NCBI GenBank assembly: GCA_943789275.1
Contig: CALSTM010000003.1
Coordinates: 570,001 to 602,000 of the forward strand
DNA: 32,000 bases
Source: Candidatus Poseidoniaceae archaeon
Lineage (GTDB): Archaea > Thermoplasmatota > Poseidoniia > Poseidoniales > Poseidoniaceae
Direction of reading: 5' to 3'
Shown: in pieces, positions 5,092 to 24,100 of the stretch
Position numbering within the stretch: position 1 is the stretch's first letter
Layout: every line of letters begins with the position of its first letter
Translations under genes and position numbers: made by a program
The notes under the pieces: model-generated
Database searches by the model: none
What the model was told of the DNA's origin: nothing
What the model saw: the letters and a program-made list of their open reading frames with translations, nothing else

Positions 5092-5470
5092 AGCAAGCCA
5101 AGGCTGCTGAAGAGAAGGCTGCTAAGGAAGCCAAAGCACAAGCTGATGCTGACGCAAAGGCTGCCAAGCAAGCCAAGGCTGCTGAAGAGAAGGCTGAGAA
5201 GGAAGCTGAGAAGCAAGCCAAGGCCCAAGCCGATGCAGATGCCAAGCAAGCCAAGGCTGCTGAAGAGAAGGCTGAGAAGGAAGCTGAGAAGCAAGCCAAG
5301 GCCCAAGCCGATGCAGATGCCAAGGAAGCCAAAGCACAAGCTGATGCTGACGCAAAGGCTGCTAAGGAAGCCAAGGCTGCTGAAGAGAAGGCGGCTAAGG
5401 AAGCCAAGGCTGCTGAAGAGAAGGCTGAGAAGGAAGCTGCTGCCAAGAAGAAGGCTGAGAAGAAACCAGC
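4948..5470 (+). repeat. Ala/Lys/Glu/Gln-rich low-complexity helical region of protein A (contains frameshift 2 and a perfect 78-bp tandem duplication)
   Basis: AKQAKAQADADAKEAKAAE... composition. Units 5169-5246 and 5247-5324 are identical. Confidence 0.85.
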
Positions 5471-6086
5471 ATCGAAGGAAGTCAAGAAAAAGGAAGAACT
5501 CAAGCGGGTTCAAGAACGCTCGGAAACGATTGACTTTTCGATTCTTGGAACAGCCAAGGCAAGCGACAAAGACGACCTTCAAGTCATGAAGGGTATTGGC
5601 CCATTCATTGAAGAAAAGCTCAATGCGCTCGGAATCTACACTTACCTACAAGTCTCGAAGATGACCTCAAAACTTGAAACAGACGTCAACGAGGCCATCG
5701 AGTTCTTCCCTGGCCGTGTCAAGCGAGACCAATGGGTCAACCAGGCGAAGATTTTGCTCGGTGAGGACGTGAAACTCGATGAGAAGGCACTCAAGCAAGC
5801 CGAAGACCTCGAACGAATCTCCAAGAAGGCTGAGTCAATTGACTTCGCTACGCTTGGTGTTGCAAGCGCTTCCGAGAAGGACTCGCTGCAGACAATCAAA
5901 GGGATTGGTCCGTTTATTGAAGAGAAGTTGAATGCGCTTGGTATTTACACCTTCGAACAAGTTGGAAACATGACGCCTGATATTGAAGAACAGGTCAACA
6001 AGGCCATCGAGTTCTTCCCAGGCCGTGTCAAGCGAGACCAATGGGCGAAGCAGTCAAGGGCTCTTCACGAACAAACTACTAAGTGA
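5091..6086 (+). CDS. Surface protein A, fragment 3 of 3: rest of Ala/Lys/Glu-rich helix plus two C-terminal helix-hairpin-helix modules
   Basis: Frame 0 has no ATG/GTG/TTG before 5586, which explains ORF track 5586..6086. From 5091 it translates as KQAKAAEEKAAKEAKAQADADAK..., continuous with fragment 2 and collinear with the gene B C-terminus. Stop TGA is at 6084-6086. Confidence 0.8.
   Translation, partial: KQAKAAEEKAAKEAKAQADADAKAAKQAKAAEEKAEKEAEKQAKAQADADAKQAKAAEEKAEKEAEKQAKAQADADAKEAKAQADADAKAAKEAKAAEEKAAKEAKAAEEKAEKEAAAKKKAEKKPASKEVKKKEELKRVQERSETIDFSILGTAKASDKDDLQVMKGIGPFIEEKLNALGIYTYLQVSKMTSKLETDVNEAIEFFPGRVKRDQWVNQAKILLGEDVKLDEKALKQAEDLERISKKAESIDFATLGVASASEKDSLQTIKGIGPFIEEKLNALGIYTFEQVGNMTPDIEEQVNKAIEFFPGRVKRDQWAKQSRALHEQTTK
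5571..6068 (+). other. Two tandem helix-hairpin-helix modules (COG3743/NuoE C-terminal-extension-like) of protein A
   Basis: The pattern L[QK].[IM]KGIGPFIEEKLNALGIYT..Q......[DE]....AIEFFPGRVKRDQW..Q[AS] occurs twice. It matches my memory of the L..I.G[IV]GP..E..L...GI..F.Q[IV]A...........F.GR[IV].R[DE].W..QA motif family. Confidence 0.55.
5589..6053 (+). repeat. 465-bp tract 100% identical to 26149-26613 (copy 1)
   Basis: Line-by-line comparison at offset 20,560 bp found no mismatch. Flanks diverge immediately: 5576, 5579 and 5588 upstream, and 6054 onward downstream. Confidence 0.95.
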
Positions 6087-6141: not shown

Positions 6142-9100
6142 ATGCACGGTGCGGATGCTTTGCTCCCTCTAACATTAAAAGCGAACAAGACTGCCTCGAA
6201 TGGCTCGAACTCGCTAAAATCGGTGATTTTGTCGCTCTTGATGATTTCAATGTCCCTCTCAGCGGGAATTGTTCAATCAAGTCCTTCCCACGAGACTCTG
6301 GAAAAGTCTTCGAGCGAACTGAGCTTGTCGACAATTTCTGACTCCGTCTCATCAGGCCTTGCTGAACTGAGCAGCTTGTTGGGGTTGGTTGAAGATCAGC
6401 CAGCCGAACTTGAACAATCCAATGCTGATGCGATGTTGACTGGGGGTCGCTCCGTTCCTTCAGTATCGTATTCTCCCAGTACGTTCAACCTCGTTCGTAA
6501 CACAGCAATGAGCGACCAAACGCCCACCTCATCTGGGGGCACGGTAACTTCTTGGTCTATTTCGCCGACTCTTCCTTCAGGTATTTCGATTTCATCATCG
6601 ACGGGTACAATCTCCGGAACGCCGACTGTAATCAGCGCATCGACCTCCTACACTGTGACAGCAACCAACGGTGCCGGCAGCGATACTGCAACCATCACCA
6701 TCTCCGTTACCGATGCTTTGCCGGTTATCGTTTACTCTCCGAACACATTCACCGAGGCTGTGGGCACTGCAATGACGTCGGTCACACCGACATCGTACGC
6801 AGGTACGGTCGATTCTTACTCGATTTCTCCGTCGCTACCTCCGGGTTTGTCCTTGGATACCAGCACGGGTACCGTTAGCGGAACGCCAACTGCCGTCTCT
6901 TCATCAACATCCTACACCGTAACGGCGACCAACTCCGCAGGTACAGACACCGCCTCCCTCACTATTGTCGTCAATGACGTTGCACCAACTTCGATCAGTT
7001 ACTCTCCGAACACATTCACGTTAACGAAGGGGACATTGATTTCTACGGTCACGCCGACCTCAAGTGGAGGGGCTGTCACATCATGGACCATTTCACCGTC
7101 TCTTCCAGCAGGACTTTCTTTGGCCTCTTCCGATGGTGCAATCAGCGGAACACCGACTGAAGTGTCATCGTTACAAACTTACACCGTGACAGGTACGAAC
7201 ACTGGCGGGAGTGCTACTGCAGAGATCACGATTCAAGTCAATGATGTTGCTCCAATCATCGGTTACCCTACGACTTCTTACACCCTGGTCAAGGGTAGTG
7301 CCATGTCGAGCCCTGCAACACCTACCTCAACCGGTGGTACAGTTGTTACTTGGGATGTATCCCCTACCCTTCCATCAGGCCTCACTATTTCCAGTTCCAC
7401 TGGTGTTATTTCAGGAACACCCACAACCGTTACTTCTTCTGCAGTCTACACCGTTACTGCGACCAACACCGGAGGCACAGATACAGCAACTGTGACCATT
7501 CAAGTCAATGATGTACAGCCGCTTATCGGTTATTCTCCGAGCTCTATTTTGTTGTCAAAGGGTACGACGATGTCGCCTGCCAGTCCAACGTTGTACGGCC
7601 AAGGACAAGTAGACTCATGGTCCGTCTCACCTTCTCTCCCCGCTGGAATAAGTCTTGACTCATCAACTGGTATCATCACCGGGATGCCTACCACTATCAG
7701 TCCCTCCGCTACGTACACCATCACTGCAACGAACACCGGTGGTACCGATACTGCAACCCTCACCATTACCGTCAATGATGCTACACCTTCAATTGCATTC
7801 TCTACGAATTCATTTACCCTGACCAAAGGCACTGCGATGACAACTACTACTCCATCATCAACCGGAGGAGCAGTTGTCACATGGTCTATCTCTCCATCGC
7901 TCTCGGCGGGGCTCTCTTTTGATTCTTCGACAGGAACACTTTCTGGAACACCAACCGTGGTTTCAGCCTCTACAGTCTACACGATTACTGCAACCAACAC
8001 TGGCGGCAGTGATTCGGCTACCGTAACCATCGTTGTCAACGATATTGCTCCATCCGCTATAGCTTACAGCCCAAGTTCCTTCACCCTGACCAAGGATTCG
8101 GCTATGACTGCTGCCACACCTACCTCGAGCGGAGGTACAGTCGTCTCTTGGGCTGTTAGTCCATCGCTCCCAGCAGGTCTCTTATTGGATACCTCAACAG
8201 GTGAGATTTCTGGAACACCTACAGCCGTGACCTCTTCTGCCACCTACACCGTTACTGCAACCAACACCGGTGGCGATGCTACAACCACCGTGACCATCGT
8301 TGTCAACGACGTGATTCCATCTTCAGTTTCGTACAGCGACAGTCCGTTTACTTTGACGAAAGATTCCCTCATGACGGCTTCTACGCCAACATACAGCGGA
8401 GGGACAGTCATCTCTTGGGCTGTTTCTCCATCGCTCCCAGCAGGTCTTGCCTTCTCTACCTCGACCGGTGAAATTTCAGGTACTCCATCGGCCGTCACTT
8501 CTTCGGCAACCTATACCATTACGGCAACCAACACCGGTGGTGACGCTACGACCACCGTGACCATCGTTGTCAACGACATTATTCCATCTTCAGTTTCGTA
8601 CAGTGGCAGTCCGTTTACCTTGACGAAAGATTCCTTGATGACGGCATCTACACCAACTTACAGCGGCGGAACAGTCATCTCTTGGGCAGTTAATCCTTCG
8701 CTCCCAGCAGGTCTTGTTCTCGATACTTCTACCGGAGAAATTTCCGGAACGCCTACAGCCGTGACCTCTTCTGCAACCTACACCATTACAGCCTCCAACA
8801 CCGGTGGCAGCGCTACGACCACCGTGACCATCGTTGTCAACGACATCATCCCATCATCGGTTACTTACAGCCCGAATTCATTCACCCTGACCAAAGACAG
8901 CAGCATGACTGCTACTACACCAACCGCAAGTGGCGGTCCAGTCGTATCTTGGGCTGTTTCTCCATCGCTACCTGCTGGCATAGTCATCGATTCATCCACC
9001 GGTGAGATCAGCGGAACCCCAACAGCTGTGACCTCTTCGGCAACCTACACCATTACAGCCACCAACACCGGTGGTAGCGCTACGACCACTGTTACCATCG

Positions 9101-12100
9101 TTGTCAACGACATTATTCCATCATCGGTTGCCTACAGCCCGAATTCATTCACCCTGACTAAAGACAGCAGCATGACTGCAACTACGCCTACTTCGAGCGG
9201 CGGTCCAGTCGTTACTTGGACAGTCTCTCCAACGCTACCTGCTGGCATAGTCATCGATTCATCCACCGGTGAGATTTCTGGAACCCCTACAGCCGTCACT
9301 TCTTCGGCAACCTACACCATTACGGCCACCAACACCGGTGGTGACGCTACGACTACTGTTACCATCGTTGTCAACGACATCATCCCATCATCAGTTTCGT
9401 ACAGTGACAGTCCGTTTACCTTGACGAAGGGTACAACCATGACGGCCTCAACCCCGACCTCGAGTGGCGGTACCGTCATTTCCTGGGCTGTTTCTCCATC
9501 GCTCCCAGCAGGTCTTGCCTTCTCTACCTCGACCGGTGAAATTTCAGGTACTCCATCGGCCGTCACTTCTTCGGCAACCTATACCATTACGGCAACCAAC
9601 ACCGGTGGTGACGCTACGACAACCGTGACCATCGTTGTTAACGACGTGATTCCGTCTTCAGTCTCTTACAGCGGAAGTCCGTTCACATTGACCAAAGACT
9701 CGGCTATGACCGCAGCCACACCTACTTCCAGCGGCGGTACCGTTGTATCGTGGGCAGTCTCTCCTTCACTCCCTTCGGGCTTGGTTATCGATTCATCAAC
9801 CGGTGTGATCAGCGGAACACCTACAGCAATCACTGCTTCAGCAACCTATACCATTACAGCCACCAACACCGGTGGAGACGCTACGACAACCGTGACCATC
9901 GTTGTCAACGACATTATTCCATCTTCAGTTTCGTACAGTGGCAGTCCGTTTACCTTGACGAAGGGCACAACCATGACGGCTTCTACGCCTACATACAGCG
10001 GCGGAACAGTCATCTCTTGGGCAGTTAATCCTTCGCTCCCAGCAGGTCTTGTTCTCGATACTTCTACCGGTGAAATTTCAGGTACTCCATCGGCCGTCAC
10101 TTCTTCGGCAACCTACACCATTACTGCAACAAACACCGGTGGAGACGCTACGACCACCGTGACCATCGTTGTCAACGACATCATCCCATCATCGGTTACT
10201 TACAGCCCGAATTCATTCACCTTGACCAAAGACAGCAGCATGACTGCTACTACGCCTACTTCGAGCGGCGGTCCAGTCGTATCTTGGGCTGTTTCTCCAT
10301 CGCTCCCAGCAGGTCTTGTTCTCGATACTTCAACCGGTGAGATTTCTGGAACACCTACAGCCGTCGCCTCTTCTGCGACTTACACCATTACGGCCACCAA
10401 CACCGGTGGTGACGCTACGACCACTGTTACCATCGTTGTCAACGACATCATCCCATCATCAGTTTCGTACAGTGACAGTCCGTTTACCTTGACGAAGGGT
10501 ACAACCATGACGGCCTCAACCCCGACCTCGAGTGGCGGTACCGTCATTTCCTGGGCTGTTTCTCCATCGCTCCCAGCAGGTCTTGCCTTCTCTACCTCGA
10601 CCGGTGAAATTTCAGGTACTCCATCGGCCGTCACTTCTTCGGCAACCTATACCATTACGGCAACCAACACCGGTGGTGACGCTACGACCACCGTGACCAT
10701 CGTTGTTAACGACGTGATTCCGTCTTCAGTCTCTTACAGCGGAAGTCCGTTCACATTGACCAAAGACTCGGCTATGACCGCAGCCACACCTACTTCCAGC
10801 GGCGGTACCGTTGTATCGTGGGCAGTCTCTCCTTCACTCCCTGCGGGCTTGGTTATCGATTCATCAACCGGTGTGATCAGCGGAACCCCAACAGCTGTTA
10901 CCTCTTCTGCGACTTACACCGTTACTGCAACCAACACCGGTGGAAGTTCGACTGCAACTGTCACCATCGTTGTCAACGATGTGATTCCATCTTCAGTTTC
11001 GTACAGCGACAGTCCGTTTACTTTGACGAAAGATTCCCTCATGACGGCTTCTACGCCAACATACAGCGGAGGGACAGTCATCTCTTGGGCTGTTTCTCCA
11101 TCGCTCCCAGCAGGTCTTGCCTTCTCTACCTCGACCGGTGAAATTTCAGGTACTCCATCGGCCGTCACTTCTTCGGCAACCTATACCATTACTGCAACAA
11201 ACACCGGTGGAGACGCTACGACTACCGTGACCATCGTTGTCAACGACATCATCCCATCATCGGTTACTTACAGCCCGAATTCATTCACCTTGACCAAAGA
11301 CTCCGTTATGTCTGCAACAACACCAACCTACAACGGCGGTACAGTCGTCTCTTGGGCAGTTAATCCATCGCTCCCTGCAGGTCTTGCTTTCTCTACTTCA
11401 ACCGGTGAAATTTCTGGAACACCTACATCCGTGACCTCTTCTGCGACCTACACCGTTACCGCAACCAACACCGGTGGTAGTGCGACCACCACCGTGACCA
11501 TCGTTGTCAACGACATCATCCCATCATCGGTTACTTACAGCCCGAATTCATTCACCTTAACCAAAGACTCCGTTATGTCTGCAACAACACCAACCTACAA
11601 CGGCGGTACAGTCGTCTCTTGGGCAGTTAATCCATCGCTCCCAGCAGGTCTTGCTTTCTCTACTTCAACCGGTGAAATTTCTGGAACACCTACATCCGTG
11701 ACCTCTTCTGCGACCTACACCGTTACCGCAACCAACACCGGTGGTAGTGCGACCACCACCGTGACCATCGTTGTCAACGACATCATCCCATCATCGGTTA
11801 CTTACAGCCCGAATTCATTCACCTTAACCAAAGACTCCGTTATGTCTGCATCGACACCAACCTACAACGGCGGTACAGTCATTTCCTGGGCTGTTTCTCC
11901 ATCGCTCCCAGCAGGTCTTGCCTTCTCGACCTCAACCGGTGAGATTTCAGGAACGCCTACAGCCGTGACCTCTTCTGCTACCTACACGGTGACAGCAACC
12001 AACACCGGTGGTGATGCTACGACCACCGTGACCATCGTTGTCAACGACATTATTCCGTCATCGGTTGCCTACAGCCCGAATTCATTCACCCTGACCAAAG

Positions 12101-15100
12101 ACAGCAGCATGACTGCCACTACACCAACCGCAAGTGGCGGTCCCGTCGTTACTTGGACAGTCTCTCCAACGCTACCTGCTGGCATAGTCATCGATTCATC
12201 CACCGGTGAACTTTCTGGTACGCCTACTGCAGTCACCTCCTCTGCAACCTACACCATCACCGCAACCAACACCGGTGGCAGCGCTACGACCACCGTGACC
12301 ATCGTTGTCAACGACATCATCCCATCTTCAGTTTCGTACAGTGACAGTCCGTTTACCTTGACGAAAGATTCCTTGATGACGGCATCTACACCAACTTACA
12401 GCGGTGGAACGGTCATCTCTTGGGCTATTGATTCAACGCTTCCAGCAGGTCTTGCTTTCTCGACTTCGACCGGTGAAATTTCAGGTACTCCATCGGCCGT
12501 CACTTCTTCGGCAACCTACACTATTACAGCCACCAACACCGGTGGCAGCGCTACGACCACCGTGACCATCGTTGTCAACGACATCATCCCATCATCGGTT
12601 GCCTACAGCCCGAATTCATTCACCCTGACCAAAGACAGCAGCATGACTGCTACTACACCAACCGCAAGTGGCGGTCCCGTCGTTACTTGGACAGTCTCTC
12701 CAACGCTACCTGCTGGCATAGTCATCGATTCATCGACCGGTGAGATCAGCGGAACCCCAACAGCTGTGACCTCTTCTGCGACTTACACCGTTACCGCAAC
12801 CAACACCGGTGGTAGCGCTACGACCACTGTTACCATCGTTGTCAACGACATTATTCCATCATCGGTTGCCTACAGCCCGAATTCATTCACCCTGACTAAA
12901 GACAGCAGCATGACTGCAACTACGCCTACTTCGAGCGGCGGTCCAGTCGTATCTTGGGCTGTTTCTCCATCGCTACCTGCTGGCATAGTCATCGATTCAT
13001 CCACCGGTGAGATTTCTGGAACCCCTACAGCCGTCACTTCTTCTGCGACTTACACCATTACGGCAACCAACACCGGTGGTGACGCTACGACAACCGTGAC
13101 CATCGTTGTTAACGACGTGATTCCGTCTTCAGTCTCTTACAGCGGAAGTCCGTTCACATTGACCAAAGACTCGGCTATGACCGCAGCCACACCTACTTCG
13201 AGCGGCGGTACGGTTGTATCGTGGGCAGTCTCTCCTTCACTCCCTGCGGGCTTGGTTATCGATTCATCAACCGGTGTGATCAGCGGAACGCCTACAGCAA
13301 TCACCGCTTCAGCAACCTACACCATTACCGCAACCAACACCGGTGGCGATGCTACGACAACCGTGATGATTGTCGTCAATGATGTTGCTCCATCATCCAT
13401 TACCTACAGTCCAAGTTCTCTCTCACTGAACAAAGATTTGACGATGACTGCAGCCACTCCTACTTCGAGTGGAGGGGCAGTCGTCTCTTGGACGATATCT
13501 CCAACGCTCCCAGCAGGTCTGTCCTTCGATGCTTCAACGGGTACAATTTCTGGAACCCCGACAACAATCACATCCTCTGCCGCATACACTGTAACGGCCA
13601 CCAACACTGGTGGAAGTGCTACTGCAACAATCACCATTGTGGTCAATGATGCGGCCCCTTCTTCCATCACTTACAACCCAAGTTCTTTCACTTTAACGAA
13701 AGGCACCGCTATGACCTCAGTTACCCCGACTTCAAGCGGTGGAACTGTTACAACTTGGTCTGTTTCTCCGCCCCTTCCAAGCGGCATTAGCATCGATTCA
13801 TCGACTGGCCAAATCAGTGGAACTCCAACTGCAGTTGTCTCTTCAGCAGCATATACTGTCACGGCAACCAATGCCGGCGGAAGTGATACTGCAACCGTAA
13901 CCATCGTTGTCAACGATGTGGCACCATCTTCGATCTTCTACAGCGGAAACCCGTTCACCCTGACCAAAGATTCTACCATGCCATCAGCCACACCTTCCTC
14001 TTTTGGAGGCACGGTCATCTCTTGGTCCATATCACCAACTCTACCTGCTGGTCTGGTAATTGACGCCTCAACTGGTGTCATTTCAGGAACACCTACTGCA
14101 GTCACATCATCTGCTACCTACACGGTGACTGCAACCAATTCTGGAGGTAGTGATTCGACCACTATTACCGTTCAGGTGAACGATGTCATCCCTTCATCTG
14201 TTTCATACAGCGGAAGTCCATTCACACTAACTAAAGACGCTGCAATGGCTCCAGCAGCACCAACTGCGAGCGGCGGCACAGTCATCACTTGGGCAGTATC
14301 CCCATCGCTTCCAGCAGGCCTCTCCTTGAGCACCTCGACCGGTGTAATCTCCGGTACACCAACCGCAATCACTTCCTCTGCTACCTACACGGTGACAGCA
14401 ACCAACAGCGGTGGTAGTGCGACTGCTACGATCACCGTTGTCGTCAACGATGTCATCCCTTCTTCGATTACGTACAGTCCAAGTTCGTTCACGCTGACCA
14501 AGGATTCTGCAATGACCGCAGTCACACCTTCTTCAAACGGTGGAACTGTTGAGACGTGGTCCGTCTCTCCATCACTGCCAGCAGGTCTTGCCTTCTCTAC
14601 CTCGACCGGTGAAATCAGCGGAACGCCGACAGCAGTCACTTCCTCTGCGAGCTATACCGTTACAGCAACCAACACCGGTGGCAGTGCAACCACTACCGTG
14701 ACAGTTGTTGTTAACGACATCATTCCATCTTCAGTTGCCTACAGTCCAAGTTCGTTCACGCTGACCAAGGATTCTGCGATGACTACGGCAACTCCGACTT
14801 CGAACGGTGGCACAGTAATTTCCTGGGCGATTTCACCTGCAGTTCCAGCAGGTCTGGCTTTCTCGACTTCAACCGGTGCTATTTCTGGAACACCAACTGA
14901 GATTACTGCATCTGCAACATACACAGTTACAGCAACCAACACCGGTGGTAGCGCAACGACCACTGTGGTCATTGTGGTCAACGATGTAGCACCGTCTTCG
15001 GTCTTCTACAGCGGAAGCCCGTTCACCTTGACCAAAAATTCTGCAATGACATCGGCTACACCTTCCGCCTTCGGTGGTACTGTCGTCTCTTGGTCGGTCT

Positions 15101-18100
15101 CACCATCGCTGCCTGCTGGTCTATCTTTTGATACATCATCCGGTACGATTTCAGGCACCCCGGCAGCGGTAACAGCATCAGCAACATACACAGTGACTGC
15201 AACCAACACCGGTGGTAGCGATTCTGCGACTATCACGATTCAGGTCAACGATGTGGCCCCTTCCTCTGTATCCTACAGCGGAAGTCCATTCACCTTGACC
15301 AAGGATACGACTATGGCTCCATCTGCACCAACCGTGAGCGGTGGCACAGTCATCACTTGGGCAGTATCCCCATCGCTTCCAGCAGGACTCTCCCTGAGCA
15401 CCTCTACTGGTGTAATTTCTGGAACGCCAACAGCGATCACTGCATCAGCATCCTATACCGTGACTGCAACCAACACCGGAGGTAGTACTACTGCTACAAT
15501 CACTGTTATCGTCAACGATGTTGCTCCTTCATCGGTCACCTACAGCCCGAGTTCGCTCACTTTGACCAAAGACCAAGCAATGTCCGCTGCAACGCCTACT
15601 TCAAGCGGTGGTGCTGTCGTCACATGGGCAATTACTCCATCTCTTCCGACAGGACTTGCCTTCTCGACATCAACAGGTACGATTTCTGGAACACCAACTG
15701 CGTTATCTTCTTCGGCGACATATACCGTGACTGCAACCAACACCGGTGGTAGTGCAACCGCCACATTGACGATTGAGGTAAACATCGCTGCTCCAACTTC
15801 AGTTACCTACAGCCCGAGTTCCTTTACACTCACCAAAGATGTCGCCATGACAACGGTCACGCCGACTGCCAGTGGTGGAACCATCACATCGTGGTCTATT
15901 TCTCCAACGCTTCCAGCAGGTCTGTCCTTTGACACTTCGAACGGTGCAGTGAGTGGTACGCCAACAGCTGTTTCTTCCTCTGCAACCTACACCGTGACAG
16001 CAACCAACGCAGGTGGCAGCGGAACCGCAACACTGACCTTCCAGGTCAACGATGTAGCACCGTCTTCTATTGCCTACAGTCCAAGTTCAATCTCGTTAAG
16101 CAAAGACTCGCCTATGACTGCAGTTACCCCAACTGCGAGTGGCGGTGCAGTCGTTTCTTGGTCGATCTCACCAACACTCCCGGCAGGTCTGTCCTTCGAT
16201 ACTTCAACGGGTACAATTTCTGGAACCCCAACAGCAATCACTGCTTCAGCAATTTATACCGTTATTGCAACCAACTCCGGAGGCAGTGCTTCGTCTACAG
16301 TGACCATCGTGGTCAACGATGCAGCACCATCTTCAGTATCGTACAGTCCGAGTTCCTTTACCTTGACAATTAACAACGCCATGACATCGGTTACTCCAAC
16401 TGCGAGCGGTGGAACCGTCACTTCTTGGACGATATCCCCTACGCTCTCATCGGGTCTCTCTTTCGACACATCAACTGGAACCATCAGTGGAACTCCAACA
16501 GCGGTGTCCTCGTCCACGGTTTACACTATCACGGCTACGAACGCCGGTGGAAGCGGTACTGCTACCGTAACGATTCAAGTGAACGATGTAGCTCCTTCGG
16601 GAATTACTTACACTCCAAATTCGTTCACACTTGCGAAAGATTCTGCTATGACAACAGTTACTCCAACTTCGACCGGCGGTACTGTCGTATCATGGTCTGT
16701 CTCACCAACGCTTCCTGCCGGTTTGTCTCTTGACACATCCACTGGAGCCATTTCAGGTACTCCAACGGCAATTTCTTCCAGTGCGACATACACAGTCACT
16801 GCGACCAACAGCGGTGGAAGCGCAACGGCAACAGTGACGATTCAAGTCACGGTAGCTGCGCCTTCTTCAATCGCCTACAGTACGAGTTCATTCACCTTGA
16901 CGAAAGATGTCGCAATAACAGCCGTCACACCTACGTCAAGCGGTGGAACGGTTTCTTCATGGTCGATTTCTCCAACACTTCCTGCAGGTCTTGCTTTCTC
17001 GACGACAGACGGAACAGTTTCAGGAACACCGACCGCGATTTCCGCATTAACCTCATACACAGTGACTGCCACCAATCAAGGTGGTAGCAGTACTGCCACA
17101 TTGACGGTTCAAGTGAACGATGTTGCACCATCTTCTATTGCCTACAGTCCAAGTTTCCTCACATTGACAAAGGACACTCCAATGGTGACTGCAACGCCAA
17201 CATCGAGCGGAGGAACTGTTACATCATGGTCGATTTCGGCAACACTTCCTGCGGGCCTTTCACTGGATGCATCAACCGGTGGAATTTCTGGAACGCCAAC
17301 AGCAACCTCTTCTGCGGTAACATACACGGTAACAGCGACCAACACAGGAGGCAGTTCTACCACTACAGTTACGATTTTGGTTAACGATGCGGCCCCAACC
17401 TCAGTTTCCTACAGTCCAAGTTCATCGATCTTGACAAAGGGTAACGCTATGACCTCCGTCACTCCGACATCGAGCGGCGGTACCGTTACTTCATGGGCAA
17501 TTACTCCATCCCTTCCGGCAGGTTTGTCTTTCTCGACTTCGACCGGTGCGATTGGTGGAACGCCTCAAGCAGTATCCGCCTCGACAACATATACCGTTAC
17601 CGCATCCAACGCCGGTGGCAGCGATACGACAACCGTAACAATCCAGGTCAATGATGTCGCTCCATACTCAGTTTCGTACAGCGGTACACCGTTTACTCTG
17701 ACCAAAGGTTCTGCAATGACCACCGCCACGCCATCTGCAAGCGGTGGTGCTGTTGATTCATGGTCGGTTACACCTCAGCTCCCGGCTGGTCTAACTTTGG
17801 ACACCTCGACCGGTACGATTTCCGGTACGCCTGCAGCAGTAACTTCCTCTGCCAGCTACACCGTCACCGCAACCAACACCGGTGGTAGTTCTACTGCAAG
17901 TGTAACCATTGTTGTCAACGATGTCATTCCTTCATCAATTACGTACAGTGGAAATCCGTTTACTCTGACCAAGGGCTCTCTGATGACTGCGGACACTCCA
18001 ACATCGAGCGGTGGCACTGTTGTTTCATGGTCCGTTTCACCAACGTTGCCTGCTGGACTTTCCTTTGACACCTCGACTGGTACTATTTCTGGAACGCCAA

Positions 18101-21100
18101 ACGCAATCACTGCATCTGCTACATACACCGTTACCGCAACCAATACTGGCGGTAGTGCAACCGCTACGCTGACGATTATTGTCAACGACGCACCACCATC
18201 TTCAGTAGCCTACAGCAGCAGTCCATTCACTTTGACGAAAGATGTTGCAATGACAACGGCCACTCCAACTTCGAGTGGAGGTAGTGTTGACTCATGGTCG
18301 ATTACACCAACCCTCCCTGCTGGCTTATCGTTCGATACTTCGACTGGAGCCATCTCCGGAACCCCAACAGCAATCACATCCTCTGCCACCTACACTGTAA
18401 CTGCTACTAATGAAGGCGGTAGTGCAACCGCTACGGTGACGATTATCGTCAACGATGCCGCCCCATCGTCACTCACATACAATCCAAGTTCATTCAACTT
18501 AGCGAAAGGTACTGCAATGACCACCGTTACTCCAACATCGAGCGGTGGAGCGATCACCTCCTGGACGATTTCATCAACGCTCCCAGCAGGTCTTTCCTTC
18601 GACACTTCGACTGGAGCAATTTCCGGCACACCAACAGCAATTACTGCTTATGCTTCTTACACCATTACTGCAAGCAACACGGGCGGTAGTGATACTGCGA
18701 CAGTGACGATTATTGTCAACGATGCAGCACCGTCTTCCATCACGTACAGTGGTAGTCCGTTTTCCTTGACCAAGGGAGTTGCCATGACCTCGGCTACACC
18801 AACAGCAAGCGGTGGAGCCGTTACTTTCTGGTCGATTTCCCCAACACTTCCAACCGGTCTGTCTTTCGATACTTCGAATGGAACGATCAGCGGAACACCG
18901 GCTGACGTCTCTTCTTCTGCAACCTACACGGTTACAGCAACCAACGCCGGTGGCAGCGATACAGCATCAGTATCGATTCAAGTGAACGATATAGCACCGT
19001 CTTCAGTCGCTTACAGTCCAAGTTTCCTCACATTGACAAAGGATACTCCAATGACGACCTCAACACCGACCTCGAGCGGCGGTACCGTCGTTTCATGGTC
19101 TATCTCCCCATCGCTCACAGCAGGACTTTCCATTGACAGTTCAACTGGAGCGATTTCTGGAACGCCAACCGTAACATCTACCGCAACCACATACACGGTT
19201 ACAGCGACCAATTCCGGTGGCGGTGCTACGACAACAGTAACAATTCTTGTCAACGATGCCGCTCCTTCATCTGTGACATACAGTCCAAGTTCTCACACCT
19301 TGACAAAGGATGTAGCCATGACAACCGTAACCCCAACCGCAAGTGGAGGCGCCGTTACTTCTTGGACAATCTCTCCATCACTCCCAGCAGGTTTGAGTAT
19401 CGATTCATCAACTGGGGCTATCAGTGGAACGCCAACTGCTGTCACTCCTACCACGATCTTCACCGTTTCTGCAACCAATGCCGGTGGCACTGGTACGACA
19501 ACAGTTACGATCCAGGTCAACGATGTAGCGCCTTACGCTGTATCCTACACCGGTACTCCTTTCACTCTGACCAAGGGGTCTGCCATGACAACTACGACTC
19601 CGACCGCTAGCGGCGGTGCTGTTGATTCTTGGTCGATAACACCTGCTCTTCCATCGGGCCTATCCATGGATACGTCAACAGGTGCGCTTTCCGGAACCCC
19701 AATGGTGGTCATTTCTTCCACGACTTATACAATTACCGCCACGAACACCGGCGGTAGTGTTTCCACAACGGTAACTTTTGTTGTCAATGATGTCACTCCT
19801 TCATCAATCGCATACAGCGGTAATCCGTTTACCCTGACCAAAGACATCGCCATGACTGCATCGACGCCTACTTCCAGTGGTGGCGATGTTGTAACTTGGC
19901 AAGTTTCGCCAAGTCTTCCAACAGGTCTCATCTTTGACACTTCGACCGGTGAAATTTCCGGAACGCCGACTGTGATCACGTCTTCTGCAGCATATACCGT
20001 GACAGCCACCAATACGGGTGGTAGTGCAACAACAACAGTGACCATCGTTGTTAACGATGCAGCACCTTCGTCTGTTGCCTTCAGTGGAAACCCATTCTCA
20101 TTGACGAAAGATGTCACCATGACGACAGCTACTCCAACCGCCAGCGGCGGTGCAATCACCTCCTGGTCGGTTACTCCTACGCTCCCAGCAGGCTTGTCTT
20201 TTGACACTTCAACAGGGGCGATTTCCGGAACGCCGACAGCAATCACATCTTCTGCCGCTTACACGGTAACTGCAGTCAACACAGGCGGTAGCGATTCGGT
20301 CACAATTACGATTGAAGTGAACGATGTTATACCTTCATCAATTACCTACAATCCAACTTCCTTCACTTTAATCAAAGACTCGGCAATGACATCAGTGACT
20401 CCAACATCAAGTGGCGGTGCTGTCACTTCATGGACGGTATCTCCATCGCTCCCGGCAGGTCTCTCTCTTGATTCTTCGACAGGAGAAATTTCAGGAACGC
20501 CAACGGCGATTACGGCTTACGGAACGTACACAATTACTGCAAGCAATACGGGTGGCAGTGCAACGGCATCGGTCACGATTCTGGTCAACGACGCAGCTCC
20601 ATCTTCGCTTGCGTACAGTGCCAGTCCGTTCACGTTGACGAAAGGCTCCGCAATGACATCCGCTACACCAACCTTCAGCGGTGGAACTCCAACATTCTGG
20701 GCGATCTCCCCAACGCTCCCAGCTGGTCTTGCGTTCGACACATCAACAGGTACTATATCCGGAACACCAACCGCAGTATCTTCCTCTGCAACATATACGC
20801 TAACTGCGACCAACGCCGGTGGCAGTGACAGTACAACGTTTACCCTACAAGTTAACGACATACCTCCATCGTCGGTATCCTACAGTCAGAGTTTCTTCTC
20901 TTTGGCAAACGGTACGACGATGACTGATGAAACACCATCTACAACAGGTGGAACCGTCACCTCTTGGACGATTTCTCCTGCGCTTCCAGCAGGTCTAACC
21001 TTGTCAGCCACAACAGGTGTCATCTCAGGTACGCCTACGACGACATCCTCTGCAACAACTTACACCGTAACAGCGACCAATTCCGGTGGTGGCGCTACGA

Positions 21101-24100
21101 CAACCTTCACACTTCTCGTGACCGTTGCTCCTCCATCTTCAGTGTCGTACAGTCCGAGCTCCTTTACCTTGACAATAAACAACGCCATGACAACGGTCAC
21201 CCCAACTGCGAGCGGTGGTGAAGTCACCTCTTGGTCGATCACACCAACGCTTCCTGCGGGTCTATCGTTTGACCCTTCAACCGGTAATATCAGTGGTACA
21301 CCAACCGCCGTGTCACCTTCAACATCGTACACCGTTACAGCAACCAATCAAGGAGGAAGCGATACTGCAACAGTGACAATCCAAGTCAACGATGTCACTC
21401 CTTACTCGATTGTATACAGTGGAACTCCGTTCACTTTGACGAAAGGTACAGCCATGACATCTGTGACACCAACCAACAGCGGTGGTTCAGTTGATACCTG
21501 GTCGATAACCCCTGCTCTTCCATCAGGCCTGTCCTTGGATACTTCGACCGGTACTCTTTCTGGAACTCCAGGAGTGGTTTCTTCATCTACTACCTACACA
21601 ATTACCGCCGAAAACACCGGTGGTAGTTCGACCGTAACGGTGAGCATCGTCATCAACGACGTTATTCCTTCGGCAATTACATACAGTGGAAATCCGTTTA
21701 CCCTGACTAAAGATACAGCTATGACCACCTCTACTCCAACCGCGAGTGGCGGTAACGTCACGGGTTGGTCGGTCACACCAGAGCTCCCAGCAGGTCTTTC
21801 CTTCGACACCTCTACTGGTGCAATTTCTGGAACTCCGACCGCAATCACTTCATCTGCTTCATACACAGTGACGGCAACCAATACTGGAGGAAGTGCAACG
21901 ACTACCGTGACCGTTGTGGTCAACGATGTCATACCATCATCTCTTGATTACAGTGGAAGTCCATTTGCACTGACGGTAGGGACAACGATGACTGCGAACA
22001 TTCCTACATCTAACGGCGGTGCTGTCACTTCATGGACGGTATCTCCAACCCTCCCAGCAGGTCTCTCTCTTGATTCGACGACAGGAGAGATTTCAGGAAC
22101 GCCAACAGCGATTACTTCATCCGCCACATACACGGTGACTGCAAGCAACACTGGTGGCAGCGACTCAGTCGCTATCACTCTGGTTGTTAACGATGTGACT
22201 CCATCATCCGTCGTCTACGGTGGAAGTCCTTACGTCCTTACGAATAATTCCATCATGACCGCAGACACACCGACTTCGAGTGGAGGATCAGTAGTTTCGT
22301 GGACGATTTCCCCGTCGCTTCCAGCAGGTCTTACCTTGGACAGTTCAACCGGTGAAATCAGTGGAACCCCTACTGAACTCTCTTCGCTATCGACTTACAC
22401 GGTAACAGCAACCAATACTGGAGGCAGTGCAACGGCTACCGTGACCATTGTGGTCAACGACGTAGTTCCAACGGTTTCTTACTCACCAGATGACCTGAGC
22501 ATGACCAACAACACGGTAAGCAGCGACCTACCACTTGCGCCGACATTGACCGGTGCTGGTGAAGTAGTCTCTTGGACCATAAGCCCGGCATTGCCAAATG
22601 GACTTGCGTTTGACACCTCAACCGGTGTGCTTAGCGGAACTGCTATGGAATTACTCGCCCGCACGATGTTTACCATCAACGCAACGAACAGCGGTGGAAC
22701 TGCAACAACATATGTGAACATCACAGTTGTTGATTCAATTCCAACCGTGACGTACCTACCTGACGACTTGAGTATGACCAACGACACGGCAAGCGTAGAT
22801 TTGCCTCTTGCACCGACATTGACCGGTGCAGGTGAAATTGTCTCCTGGACCATCAGTCCAGCTCTACCAAATGGCCTTACGTTTGACACCTCAACTGGTG
22901 TTCTTAGCGGAACACCAATCGAATTATTCAATCGCACTATGTTCACTGTGAATGCAACGAACACCGGTGGAACCGCGACTGCGTACATCAACATCACTGT
23001 GCTTGACAGCGTTCCGATTGTGGAGTATGTCCCAAGTGATATCGAATTGCTCAGTAATTCCAGTGTTGTCGATATTGTTCCTCTTTCCACCGGTGGAGCT
23101 GTTCTGCAATGGTCGATTACACCTGAACTTTCGCCGGGTCTTTCGTTTGACACCTCAACAGGTCGTATCAGCGGTGTCCCTGCTGAAATTAGCAACCAAA
23201 CGCTCTACACAATCACTGCATCCAATGATGATGGAAGTATAATGGCATACGTAAACATCACCGTTGAAGACACTGTTTACGATACAACTGCTGGCCCGAT
23301 CTACATGCTGGATAATACGACCATCAATGCTATCGCTCCGATCTCAACCATAAGTGGTTCTCAGTTTGAGATTCATCCTGCACTACCACAAGGATTGATG
23401 TTCGGTGAGTCGAATGGAACGATATACGGCACTCCTACTGAAGTTATTGGTCTTACGAACTTTACCATCTATTCGAACTCGAGCCTGTTCAACGACAGTT
23501 TCAAAGTGCAACTTCAAGTTCTCGCCGACACCGATGGCGATTCTATGCCTGACCAATTGCCTGAGAACTACAACTCTACAGGCGGCCTCGTCGAAGACTT
23601 GGACGATGACGGCGATGGTTTCACTGATGCCGATGAAGAAGATTGTCTTTCAGCCTCGCTCGACTTGAATTCCGTGCCACTTGACCTCGATGGGGACAAT
23701 GTGTGTGACGCTCTCGATGACGATATCGACGGCGATGGTCTGCCCAACAGCGTTGAAGACAACAGCGGTATTTTCACGTCGGTCAACAGTACAGGAACAG
23801 ACCCATTGAATGCAGATACAGACGGAGATGGAATCTGTGACGGACCAACAGCCATCAACGGAACTTGCACTCTGGGCCCAGATGCATTCCCGAACGACAA
23901 ATCCGCATCCATCGACACCGACGGTGATGGAATGCCGGACGAATTAAACGGCACCTCGACCAGTACTCCGCCTCTTGTCGAGGATACTGACGATGATGAC
24001 GATTCCGTTCTCGATGTTGATGATGCTTTCCCACTTGATGAAAACGAAACCGTCGATACAGATGGTGATGGAACCGGAGACAACGAAGACACCGACGATG

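Follow-up and report, generated by a model that had tools for sequence, protein, structure and literature searches.

The window analysed here, a stretch of 32,000 nucleotides of archaeal DNA, carries a gene of 20.5 kb whose long rod is built of repeated units, some nearly identical to one another in DNA and others much diverged. Two questions follow from this arrangement: what keeps one group of units alike, and does the same process alter the number of units within a population?

Organisation of the gene and its product

The reading frame and its membrane anchor are placed as follows.

6142–26643, + strand: giant open reading frame of 6,833 amino acids, with the same 6,833-residue call on three other long contigs
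24673–24726, + strand, inside this frame: transmembrane helix, read from the sequence

The host is a Poseidoniaceae (marine Group II) archaeon and the product is predicted to be a membrane-anchored giant surface protein. From the N-terminus it comprises a hydrophobic leader, approximately 63 tandem Ig-like units, an acidic TSP3-like region, the transmembrane helix and a cytoplasmic tail of about 640 residues. The leader and the C-terminal helix are read straight from the sequence, and the protein would accordingly be displayed at the cell surface. Residues 1–112 are the leader and a low-complexity linker, and the acidic TSP3-type repeats lie in the ectodomain, distal to the rod. The units belong to the He_PIG family (Pfam PF05345, E-set Ig-like; E = 2.5e-105, 345.6 bits against a cut-off of 24), with ten He_PIG stretches in the first 979 residues. 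Pfam gave matches of He_PIG type only for residues 1–979, and a separate N-terminal ligand-binding domain was not found there. An AF2 model of three units (pLDDT 93.5) is an all-beta sandwich whose Foldseek matches are tandem Ig or cadherin arrays, such as those of titin, contactin, cadherin-23, SraP and LigA. With about 63 such domains end to end, a fibre might, as a rough estimate, measure some 200 nm or more.

Units were numbered in 267-bp steps counted from 6409. The unit frame of the initial annotation is shifted by +33 nt relative to this register and falls where the AF2 model places the boundary between structural domains. Five classes of unit follow one another along the rod.

6409–8010, + strand: units 1–6, old, diverged and tip-proximal; best-paralog DNA identity 42–64%
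8011–8277, + strand: unit 7, transitional; best paralog 81%, basal in the core clade and not homogenised
8278–13350, + strand: units 8–26, the homogenised core of 19 units, with four subtypes (A–D) in shuffled order
13351–22428, + strand: units 27–60, old; about 66% mutual identity, best-paralog DNA identity 66–82%
22429–22997, + strand: two distal units of 273 bp (91 residues), the number of which varies between assemblies

The initial annotation had described a homogenised core of 20 units at 8044–13383 between diverged flanks. The core is real and stands out from its surroundings, with best-paralog DNA identities of 88.8–99.6% in units 8–26 and 42–82% in the flanking units, but it numbers 19 units, unit 7 being transitional. 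It makes up the outer, membrane-distal third of the stalk (units 8–26 of 63) and is not central.

Near-identical tracts and subtypes in the core

Units 7–26 form one clade in a tree of the units (support 93/94), and four subtypes are resolved with supports of 96–100: A (units 8, 9, 12, 14, 16, 18 and 23), B (10, 11, 15, 22, 24 and 25), C (13, 17 and 26) and D (19, 20 and 21). These subtypes are interleaved, as had been proposed from the shuffled order of a few recurring unit types. Homogenisation holds within subtypes and not across the whole core: four subtypes persist, and mean identity within the core is 79.5%, compared with about 66% in the rest of the stalk. The closest copies are the following.

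9313–9818, + strand: first copy of a 506-bp tract, covering the end of unit 11, unit 12 and most of unit 13
10381–10886, + strand: second copy of this tract, covering the end of unit 15, unit 16 and most of unit 17
11224–11850, + strand: units 19-20-21, tandem near-identical copies
13054–13289, + strand: unit-26 tract, near-identical to parts of unit 13 (9583–9818) and unit 17 (10651–10886)

The two copies of the 506-bp tract lie 1068 bp (four units) apart and differ by three mismatches, exactly as first reported for 9313–9817 and 10381–10885; their longest exact run is 266 bp. Within units 19-20-21, 11224–11583 and 11491–11850 match over 360 bp with two mismatches at an offset of 267 bp, and units 19 and 20 have pN = 0 and pS = 0.067. 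The unit-26 tract (236 bp, three mismatches) is 13 units away from its counterpart in unit 13 and nine from that in unit 17. Tracts 8293–8522 and 10963–11192 share 230 bp with one mismatch, 10 units apart, and 9061–9212 and 12799–12950 share 152 bp exactly, 14 units apart. The reported recurrences of whole units likewise hold, unit 13 returning as unit 26 (96.3% identity) and as the first part of unit 17 (the first ~165 nt match), and unit 8 as unit 18 (95.9%). All 33 in-register exact repeats of at least 60 bp in the 20.5-kb gene fall within 8011–13350, with none outside, and the longest measures 266 bp.

A 4-unit (1068-bp) higher-order repeat, also proposed for the core, did not emerge from this analysis. 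Over lags of 1–12 units we found no identity peak recurring periodically along the array at a multi-unit lag: lag 4 averages 82.2% identity and the other lags 76.6–81.1%. Near-identity at lag 4 is limited to one pair of about 1.9 units, the remaining putative lag-4 block (unit pairs 11/15, 14/18 and 15/19) is 87–88% identical, and other near-identical tracts occur at lags 1, 2, 8, 9, 10, 13 and 14. The lag-4 pattern would fit an older duplication of about five units overlaid by one recent conversion tract of about 0.5 kb.

The homogenised zone in other species

All ten orthologues examined contain a zone, beginning at unit 7–8 and some 15–32 units long, in which best-paralog identity is 88–100%, with lower values at both ends. 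This shows that the same zone of the rod has been homogenised independently in other species. Units 1–6 of the present gene have one-to-one orthologues elsewhere, being reciprocal best units in P0001, P0003, P0009 and P0010, and are 80–91% identical in nucleotide sequence to the matching positions of the metagenome contig L023. Unit-by-unit orthology of the rod with the distant orthologues P0001 and P0009 is resolvable only for units 1–5 and 61–63, because all rod units are 70–80% alike; positional arguments rest on closer species pairs. One such pair, P0009 (54 units) and P0003 (58 units), is collinear save for a single 4-unit indel at the proximal edge of the zone. Another, P0001 and P0002, retains one-to-one unit orthology (84–99%) through the homogenised zone, and homogenisation must therefore be slow.

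Unit number among assemblies

The initial annotation had predicted copy-number polymorphism of the core, which we did not find. The core unit count is identical in all seven informative long-contig assemblies, which come from different samples but are near-clonal (0–2 differences in 8.8 kb), so that this is a weak test of length variation; the concordant assemblies, which seem to share one project as well as one near-clonal lineage, support the structure and say little on population dynamics. A protein of 6,833 residues is called in each of G000, L105, L110 and L113. Assembly L022, from another sample, matches the first 7.5 kb of the gene, up to unit 27, and its units 1–26 are base-identical save for one SNP and one single-base indel, and the ORF lengths of L101 and L102, from which their gene starts were derived, back-calculate exactly to the start codon at 6142. 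Core unit number thus appears to be fixed within the sampled, near-clonal population.

These counts bear on a Periscope-type length switch, by which frequent recombination would generate alleles with differing core unit numbers and so tune the projection of the fibre. In two deviant assemblies the differences fall exactly on the tracts predicted to recombine. P0126, a 20-kb JGI contig, is five units short: the four units that separate the 506-bp repeats are missing, as is one of units 19/20; in L021 unit 13 is joined to unit 26, with 13 units fewer. Each deletion falls on the longest near-identical repeats, which assemblers collapse, and the exact repeats of 137–266 bp exceed short-read k-mers. 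The contig of P0126 covers no more than the gene and is bounded by two copies of a 465-bp repeat, and the L021 junction unit interleaves bases of units 13 and 26 at a noisy contig end, 3 kb from the terminus in unpolished sequence. Both assemblies probably represent repeat collapse, and they were dropped as proof of copy-number alleles. The length switch could also draw on the sister-species protein P0195, which has lost three out of four identical units, on unit totals that range from 54 to 66 between species, and on the distal 273-bp array, which has two units here, six in L101 and at least six in L103, the six-unit form being read from L101, a contig with a broken frame, and from L103, a short-read scaffold with gaps. 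Against this stand the common count in the seven assemblies and the equal unit numbers in 10 of 11 pairs within sister-species clusters that differ by 1–45 residues. We consider such a switch unlikely.

An artefact of assembly or polishing, in which mis-mapped reads evened out the copies or merged strains created the mosaic, is highly improbable. The upstream neighbour gene does show breaks in its frame here that L022 lacks, and there are frameshifts inside the present gene on other contigs of the project. However, the core recurs base for base in assemblies of other samples, down to the three mismatches that separate the 506-bp copies; random polishing errors would not recur in this way, and the 20.5-kb frame is open both here and on three other contigs.

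The whole gene is absent from five of ten long contigs. The 363 additional residues of L101 correspond to four extra distal 273-bp units, and extra core units were ruled out. Since exact repeats reach 266 bp, the gene comes out truncated or collapsed in short-read MAGs, and repeat counts taken from them are therefore not to be trusted. Neither the 6,833-residue protein nor the N-terminal fragment of L022 gave any members in a protein-cluster look-up. A scan of metagenome contigs with the N-terminal 267 residues, which missed the JGI contig behind P0126, returned one close relative, L023 (5.5 kb, ending near unit ~10).

Recombination among core units

The initial annotation had attributed the homogenised zone to recombination or gene conversion and suggested mapping exchanges among the unit subtypes. 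Low pS, the PHI test, mosaic units and the confinement of exact repeats to the core all speak for this attribution. In the core, pS averages 0.47, against 0.68 (saturated) in the flanks, and it falls to 0.013–0.19 within subtypes. The PHI statistic was 0.396, against 0.68 ± 0.018 in permuted data, with none of 2000 permutations as low (p<0.0005), and 53% of informative site pairs among core units are incompatible. Mosaics exist below the level of the unit, with donor switches every 50–150 nt: painting resolves unit 11 as unit 25, then 22/24, then 25 again, unit 17 as 13 followed by 24, and unit 21 as 20 followed by 12/16. Unequal crossing-over after duplication could also yield hybrid units, and gene conversion is not cleanly separable from it in one sequence.

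Core units are 93–100% identical in amino acid sequence to their best paralog, compared with 71–80% to the best unit of any orthologue. Paralogs are thus closer than orthologous units, silent sites included, as concerted evolution is operationally defined; the nearest relative with DNA for this comparison, L023, spans only units 1–9. DNA-level recombination is favoured over protein constraint because silent sites are alike too, and the sequence comparisons support the view that recombination, rather than constraint on the protein, keeps the core units alike. That old core units were kept alike by purifying selection only, without recent DNA exchange, is hardly tenable: low core pN/pS (0.21) and the conserved position of the zone across species would suit it, but it does not account for the similarity at silent sites, for exact DNA runs of up to 266 bp, or for closest copies whose differences are all synonymous.

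Comparison with known repeat systems

Arrays of rDNA and satellite DNA evolve in concert by unequal crossing-over and gene conversion, which produce a homogeneous centre and diverged edges. The present array resembles them in that paralogs are closer than orthologues, edge units have escaped, mosaics are conversion-like and offsets are integer numbers of units. Unlike them, it is a protein-coding, in-frame array of domains under purifying selection, its homogenised zone is off-centre and it has no true higher-order periodicity.

Recombining repeat stalks are well known from bacterial adhesins, and the Poseidoniaceae gene provides an archaeal example. The Periscope Proteins include SasG/Aap, Rib/alpha-C, Sgo_0707, Esp and CdrA (Whelan et al. 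2021, PMC8201768; review PMC9704523), and variation in repeat number between close relatives defines the class (PMC8201768). Judged from its leader, transmembrane helix and AF2/Foldseek results, the present protein, like these (PMC8201768), would be cell-anchored with a long stalk of tandem folded, mostly Ig-like domains joined by short linkers, and in both cases high DNA identity between units is put down to intragenic homologous recombination. It differs in being archaeal, archaea being unmentioned in PMC8201768, PMC9704523 and the fibrillar-adhesin survey PMC8286594; in its anchor, a transmembrane helix with a large cytoplasmic tail; in the lack of a detected separate N-terminal ligand-binding domain (Pfam, residues 1–979); and in the lack of variation in core repeat number among the seven informative near-clonal assemblies. 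Furthermore, only 19 of about 63 units are alike here, in four interleaved subtypes (mean 79.5%); the portion of PMC8201768 consulted sets no numeric identity threshold for 'highly identical' repeats.

Poseidoniales 'thrombospondin' and other adhesion genes have been noted, as presence only (Rinke et al. 2019, PMC6461757). The present gene shares with them the organism group and a presumed role in cell adhesion, and the ectodomain of its product has acidic TSP3-type repeats; that paper never uses the word 'repeat' and does not analyse how repeats are arranged or how they change. In the uncultured and abundant marine Group II archaea, no lineage-specific genes are more conspicuous than those for giant surface proteins. 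The present case shows that the repeat stalks of these genes evolve by intragenic recombination as bacterial adhesins do, with the position of the active zone conserved across species. A repeat number that appears fixed in the sampled population, in which the whole gene comes and goes, frames the kind of surface variation that these archaea use.

A model for the core

The core is very probably a young, lineage-specific clade of 19–20 He_PIG units that occupies the outer third of the stalk, undergoing slow concerted evolution and not serving as a hypervariable length switch. The sequence comparisons show that one ancestral unit gave rise to the four subtypes, which have been copied over one another by intragenic homologous recombination. 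The offsets are always multiples of 267 bp, so that both reading frame and domain phase are preserved. Two modes may have operated: duplication of blocks or units, giving the older copy of about five units at a 4-unit offset (now 87–88%) and the tandem 19-20-21; and gene conversion in short tracts of about 50–500 bp over distances of 1–14 units, of which the 506-bp tract would be the freshest product. The process is likely to be self-sustaining and confined to the core, because sufficiently long exact matches appear to survive only there, the edges having diverged out of reach.

We put forward more tentatively, and as rather unlikely, that the zone from unit 7–8 is a conserved, selected, membrane-distal 'growth zone' that tunes fibre length or surface identity, which would make it the first periscope-like system to be described in Archaea. 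This suggestion draws on the homogenisation of the zone in every species examined and on the changes in unit number that occur there between species. If it is true, the growth zone is coupled here with all-or-none presence or absence of a whole 20-kb gene in one population.

Units 27–60 retain traces of ancient block duplications, in 7-unit sets (41/48/55, 43/50/57, 44/51/58 and 45/52) and 4-unit sets (29/33 and 30/34).

Architecture of the giant gene

Homologues bear source names that put the window's neighbours and relatives in the Poseidoniaceae (marine Group II archaea, MGII). The genome carrying the window (2.11 Mb, 3 contigs) encodes a giant putative surface protein with the following features.

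Giant ORF, 6142..26643, + strand: encodes 6,833 aa
N-terminal start: hydrophobic leader
After the leader: ~60 units of 89 aa (267 bp)
After the 89-aa units: two to three 91-aa units
Distal to the 91-aa units: acidic TSP3-like region
24673-24726: single TM helix
C-terminal tail, ~640 aa: K/A/E repeats and helix-hairpin-helix (HhH) modules

The repeat units belong to the He_PIG family of Ig-like domains (PF05345, E = 2.5e-105). Three consecutive units modelled with AlphaFold2 give a confident (pLDDT 93.5), all-beta structure whose predicted fold is similar to the tandem Ig/cadherin arrays of titin, contactins, cadherin-23, SraP and LigA. Units are numbered here in 267-bp steps from 6409; the structural domain boundary in the model (VND|IIP) lies 33 nt downstream of this register, and the unit register of the initial annotation coincides with that boundary.

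A homogenised core in the repeat array

Each of units 8-26 (8278-13350) has a best paralog, the most similar other unit in the gene, at 88.8-99.6% identity; the corresponding values are 81% for unit 7, 42-64% for units 1-6 and 66-82% for units 27-60. Pairs of units average 79.5% identity within the core, and 66% both among units 27-60 and between these and the core. A search of the whole gene gave 33 in-register exact repeats of at least 60 bp; every one lies within the core, the longest being 266 bp, and chance is not an issue as their source. The homogenised core described in the initial annotation is real and cleanly documented, and the near-identical pair reported there is exact, 9313-9818 matching 10381-10886 with 3 mismatches in 506 bp. 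Other near-identical tracts occur at offsets of 1, 2, 4, 8, 9, 10, 13 and 14 units.

A 4-unit higher-order repeat had also been proposed, but unit pairs at lag 4 average 82.2% identity, compared with 76.6-81.1% at other lags, and there is no such repeat. Near-identity at lag 4 spans only ~1.9 units, and the adjacent lag-4 pairs 11/15, 14/18 and 15/19 reach 87-88% identity. This is most simply read as a ~5-unit duplication of older date, later overlaid by one recent conversion tract of ~0.5 kb. Outside the core, older block duplications are seen of 7 units (41/48/55, 43/50/57, 44/51/58 and 45/52, 72-76% identity, in units 38-59, 16288-22161) and of 4 units (29/33 and 30/34, 76-82% identity, in units 29-34, 13885-15486). 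The orthologue P0001 has a far younger lag-7 pair, units 48-49 and 55-56, at 94-96% amino acid identity.

Recombination among core units

In a maximum-likelihood tree units 7-26 form one clade (93/94) containing four well-supported subtypes. Silent-site divergence is 0.013 between units 12 and 16, 0.067 between units 19 and 20, 0.09-0.19 for the remaining within-subtype pairs and 0.47 across the whole core, with the flanks saturated at 0.68; the closest copies differ synonymously only. The core silent sites show that the units share recent ancestry.

The core units are also mosaics. Informative site pairs in the core are incompatible in 53% of cases, and the PHI recombination statistic is 0.396 against 0.68±0.018 in permuted data, with 0 of 2000 permutations giving so low a value. 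Window painting shows a switch of donor every 50-150 nt within core units.

Mosaic units in the core, by window painting (donor units in order)
Unit 11: 25, then 22/24, then 25
Unit 17: 13, then 24
Unit 21: 20, then 12/16
Unit 9: 14, then 23, then 14

Exchange offsets are, without exception, integer multiples of 267 bp. Mosaics of this kind are the mark left by gene conversion or by unequal exchange among units that have misaligned. Point differences between assemblies within the repeats comprise A/T at 11643 (L022), S1852A with A1857S (P0014) and N5457D; this last makes unit 61 like unit 62 at that site and is conversion-like.

Assembly support

Across the 7.5 kb that begin at the start codon and close with unit 27, a locus in another assembly (L022; ena:ERZ10646685 contig_34068) differs from the window by 1 SNP and 1 single-base insertion. 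On three contigs of 290-802 kb from other samples (L105, L110, L113) the product is called at exactly 6,833 aa, and the upstream ORF lengths in L101 and L102 (5,816 and 5,530 aa) both back-calculate to a start at 6142. Two homologous proteins match the window from unit 17 on, P0014 (0.99-Mb contig) except for 3 residues and P0122 (1.03-Mb contig) with an additional tail insertion. Judged by this agreement, a polishing or strain-merging artefact is very unlikely to be the source of the core structure. In the adjacent upstream adhesin gene, the 3' part is one open frame of at least 323 aa in L022 (3-974); in the window (5100-6086) the frame is broken and an ORF restarts at 5586, consistent with consensus indel errors or with real pseudogenisation in the window's assembly.

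Unit number in the core

The copy-number polymorphism predicted in the initial annotation was not borne out, the core unit count being the same in seven of seven informative assemblies. The concordant assemblies have 0-2 base differences over 8.8 kb of unique rod, and because the sample is thus near-clonal the lack of length variation is weak evidence. Two assemblies depart from the common count. In P0126 (JGI contig, 20,056 nt), the four units that separate the 506-bp repeats are missing, as is one of units 19/20, and its unit 11 is identical to its own unit 25. L021, whose contig ends within the core, has the order 8-9-10-11-12-[13/26]-27; bases in the junction unit alternate between those specific to unit 13 and those specific to unit 26, and the preceding 1.6 kb is noisy, with indels and 87-95% identity. 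Both patterns are as expected of repeat collapse, where exact repeats are longer than k-mers or overlaps can resolve, and both are treated as unproven.

Sister-species clusters test this more broadly: of 11 pairs whose ectodomains differ by 1-45 aa, 10 have equal unit numbers. P0195, compared with P0010 of the same species cluster (aa 1634-1900), lacks 3 of 4 units that are 100% identical; P0195 is on a shorter, 39-kb contig, and the loss is either real or a collapse.

Variation elsewhere in the gene

The giant gene is itself a whole-gene presence/absence polymorphism. It is absent from 5 of 10 long contigs with the downstream HTH_10 gene (L104, L106, L108, L109 and L112, from other samples). 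These contigs join window position ~6053 to ~26127 (absent span 6054-26126), so that the upstream adhesin tail is followed by the region before the HTH_10 gene. The junction is the ~0.5-kb 3' end common to the upstream adhesin gene and the giant gene, 5589-6053 and ~26179-26643 (9206-9692 in L104).

The distal 273-bp units (91 aa, 'SPDDLSMTNxT'; 22429-22997) occur twice in the window, L022, L102 and L021, six times in L101 (8800-10500) and at least six times in L103 (9700-11600)/P0127. One distal unit of L021 is a hybrid. In the L101 array units 61-62 are repeated with a frameshift inside, and this arrangement may in part represent two alleles merged together. HhH modules in the cytoplasmic tail number 2 or 3, P0122 having three instead of two (+103 aa). 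The tail end (~26100-26640) exists in alternative versions, 'GIYTYLQVSKMTSKLETD...' in the window and 'GITTYRQIANMDAKLETQ...' elsewhere (P0122/L107, P0125/L022, P0123).

Comparison with known systems

Among these, the bacterial 'Periscope Protein' (PMC8201768) comes closest, and the giant protein resembles its stalk in having recombining Ig-like repeats. Archaea are unmentioned in that paper, in a review (PMC9704523) and in a fibrillar-adhesin survey (PMC8286594); the MGII literature notes adhesion genes, and the repeat dynamics of those genes are absent from it. Unlike Periscope Proteins, the giant protein lacks a distinct binding domain at its N terminus, its stalk units are alike in one sub-zone only, and strain-level variation in core length is unproven; for these reasons we do not place it among them. 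The homogenised core is an ordinary type of feature, here in an archaeon.

Comparison across species

The best paralog of a core unit shares 93-100% amino acid identity with it, compared with only 71-80% for the best unit of any orthologue. In 10 of 10 orthologues best-paralog identity is 88-100% in a zone that begins at unit 7-8 and extends for ~15-32 units, and is lower at both ends. Unit totals are 54, 58, 63 and 66 across species. The sister-species proteins P0009 and P0003 are collinear but for a single clean indel of 4 units, located at the homogenised zone's proximal edge (P0003 units 26-29), and P0001 and P0002 keep one-to-one unit orthology throughout. In L023, the nearest relative with DNA, units 1-6 are at 80-91% nucleotide identity and units of subtype A (in the window 8, 9, 12, 14, 16, 18 and 23) are already present at positions 8-9; the subtypes are therefore older than the L023 split, and the near-identities much younger. 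In a congeneric species (L016; G018:C2:125887-127419) a single query segment matches six times at regular 273-bp spacing, which suggests that a 273-bp repeat array has been homogenised separately in that genome.
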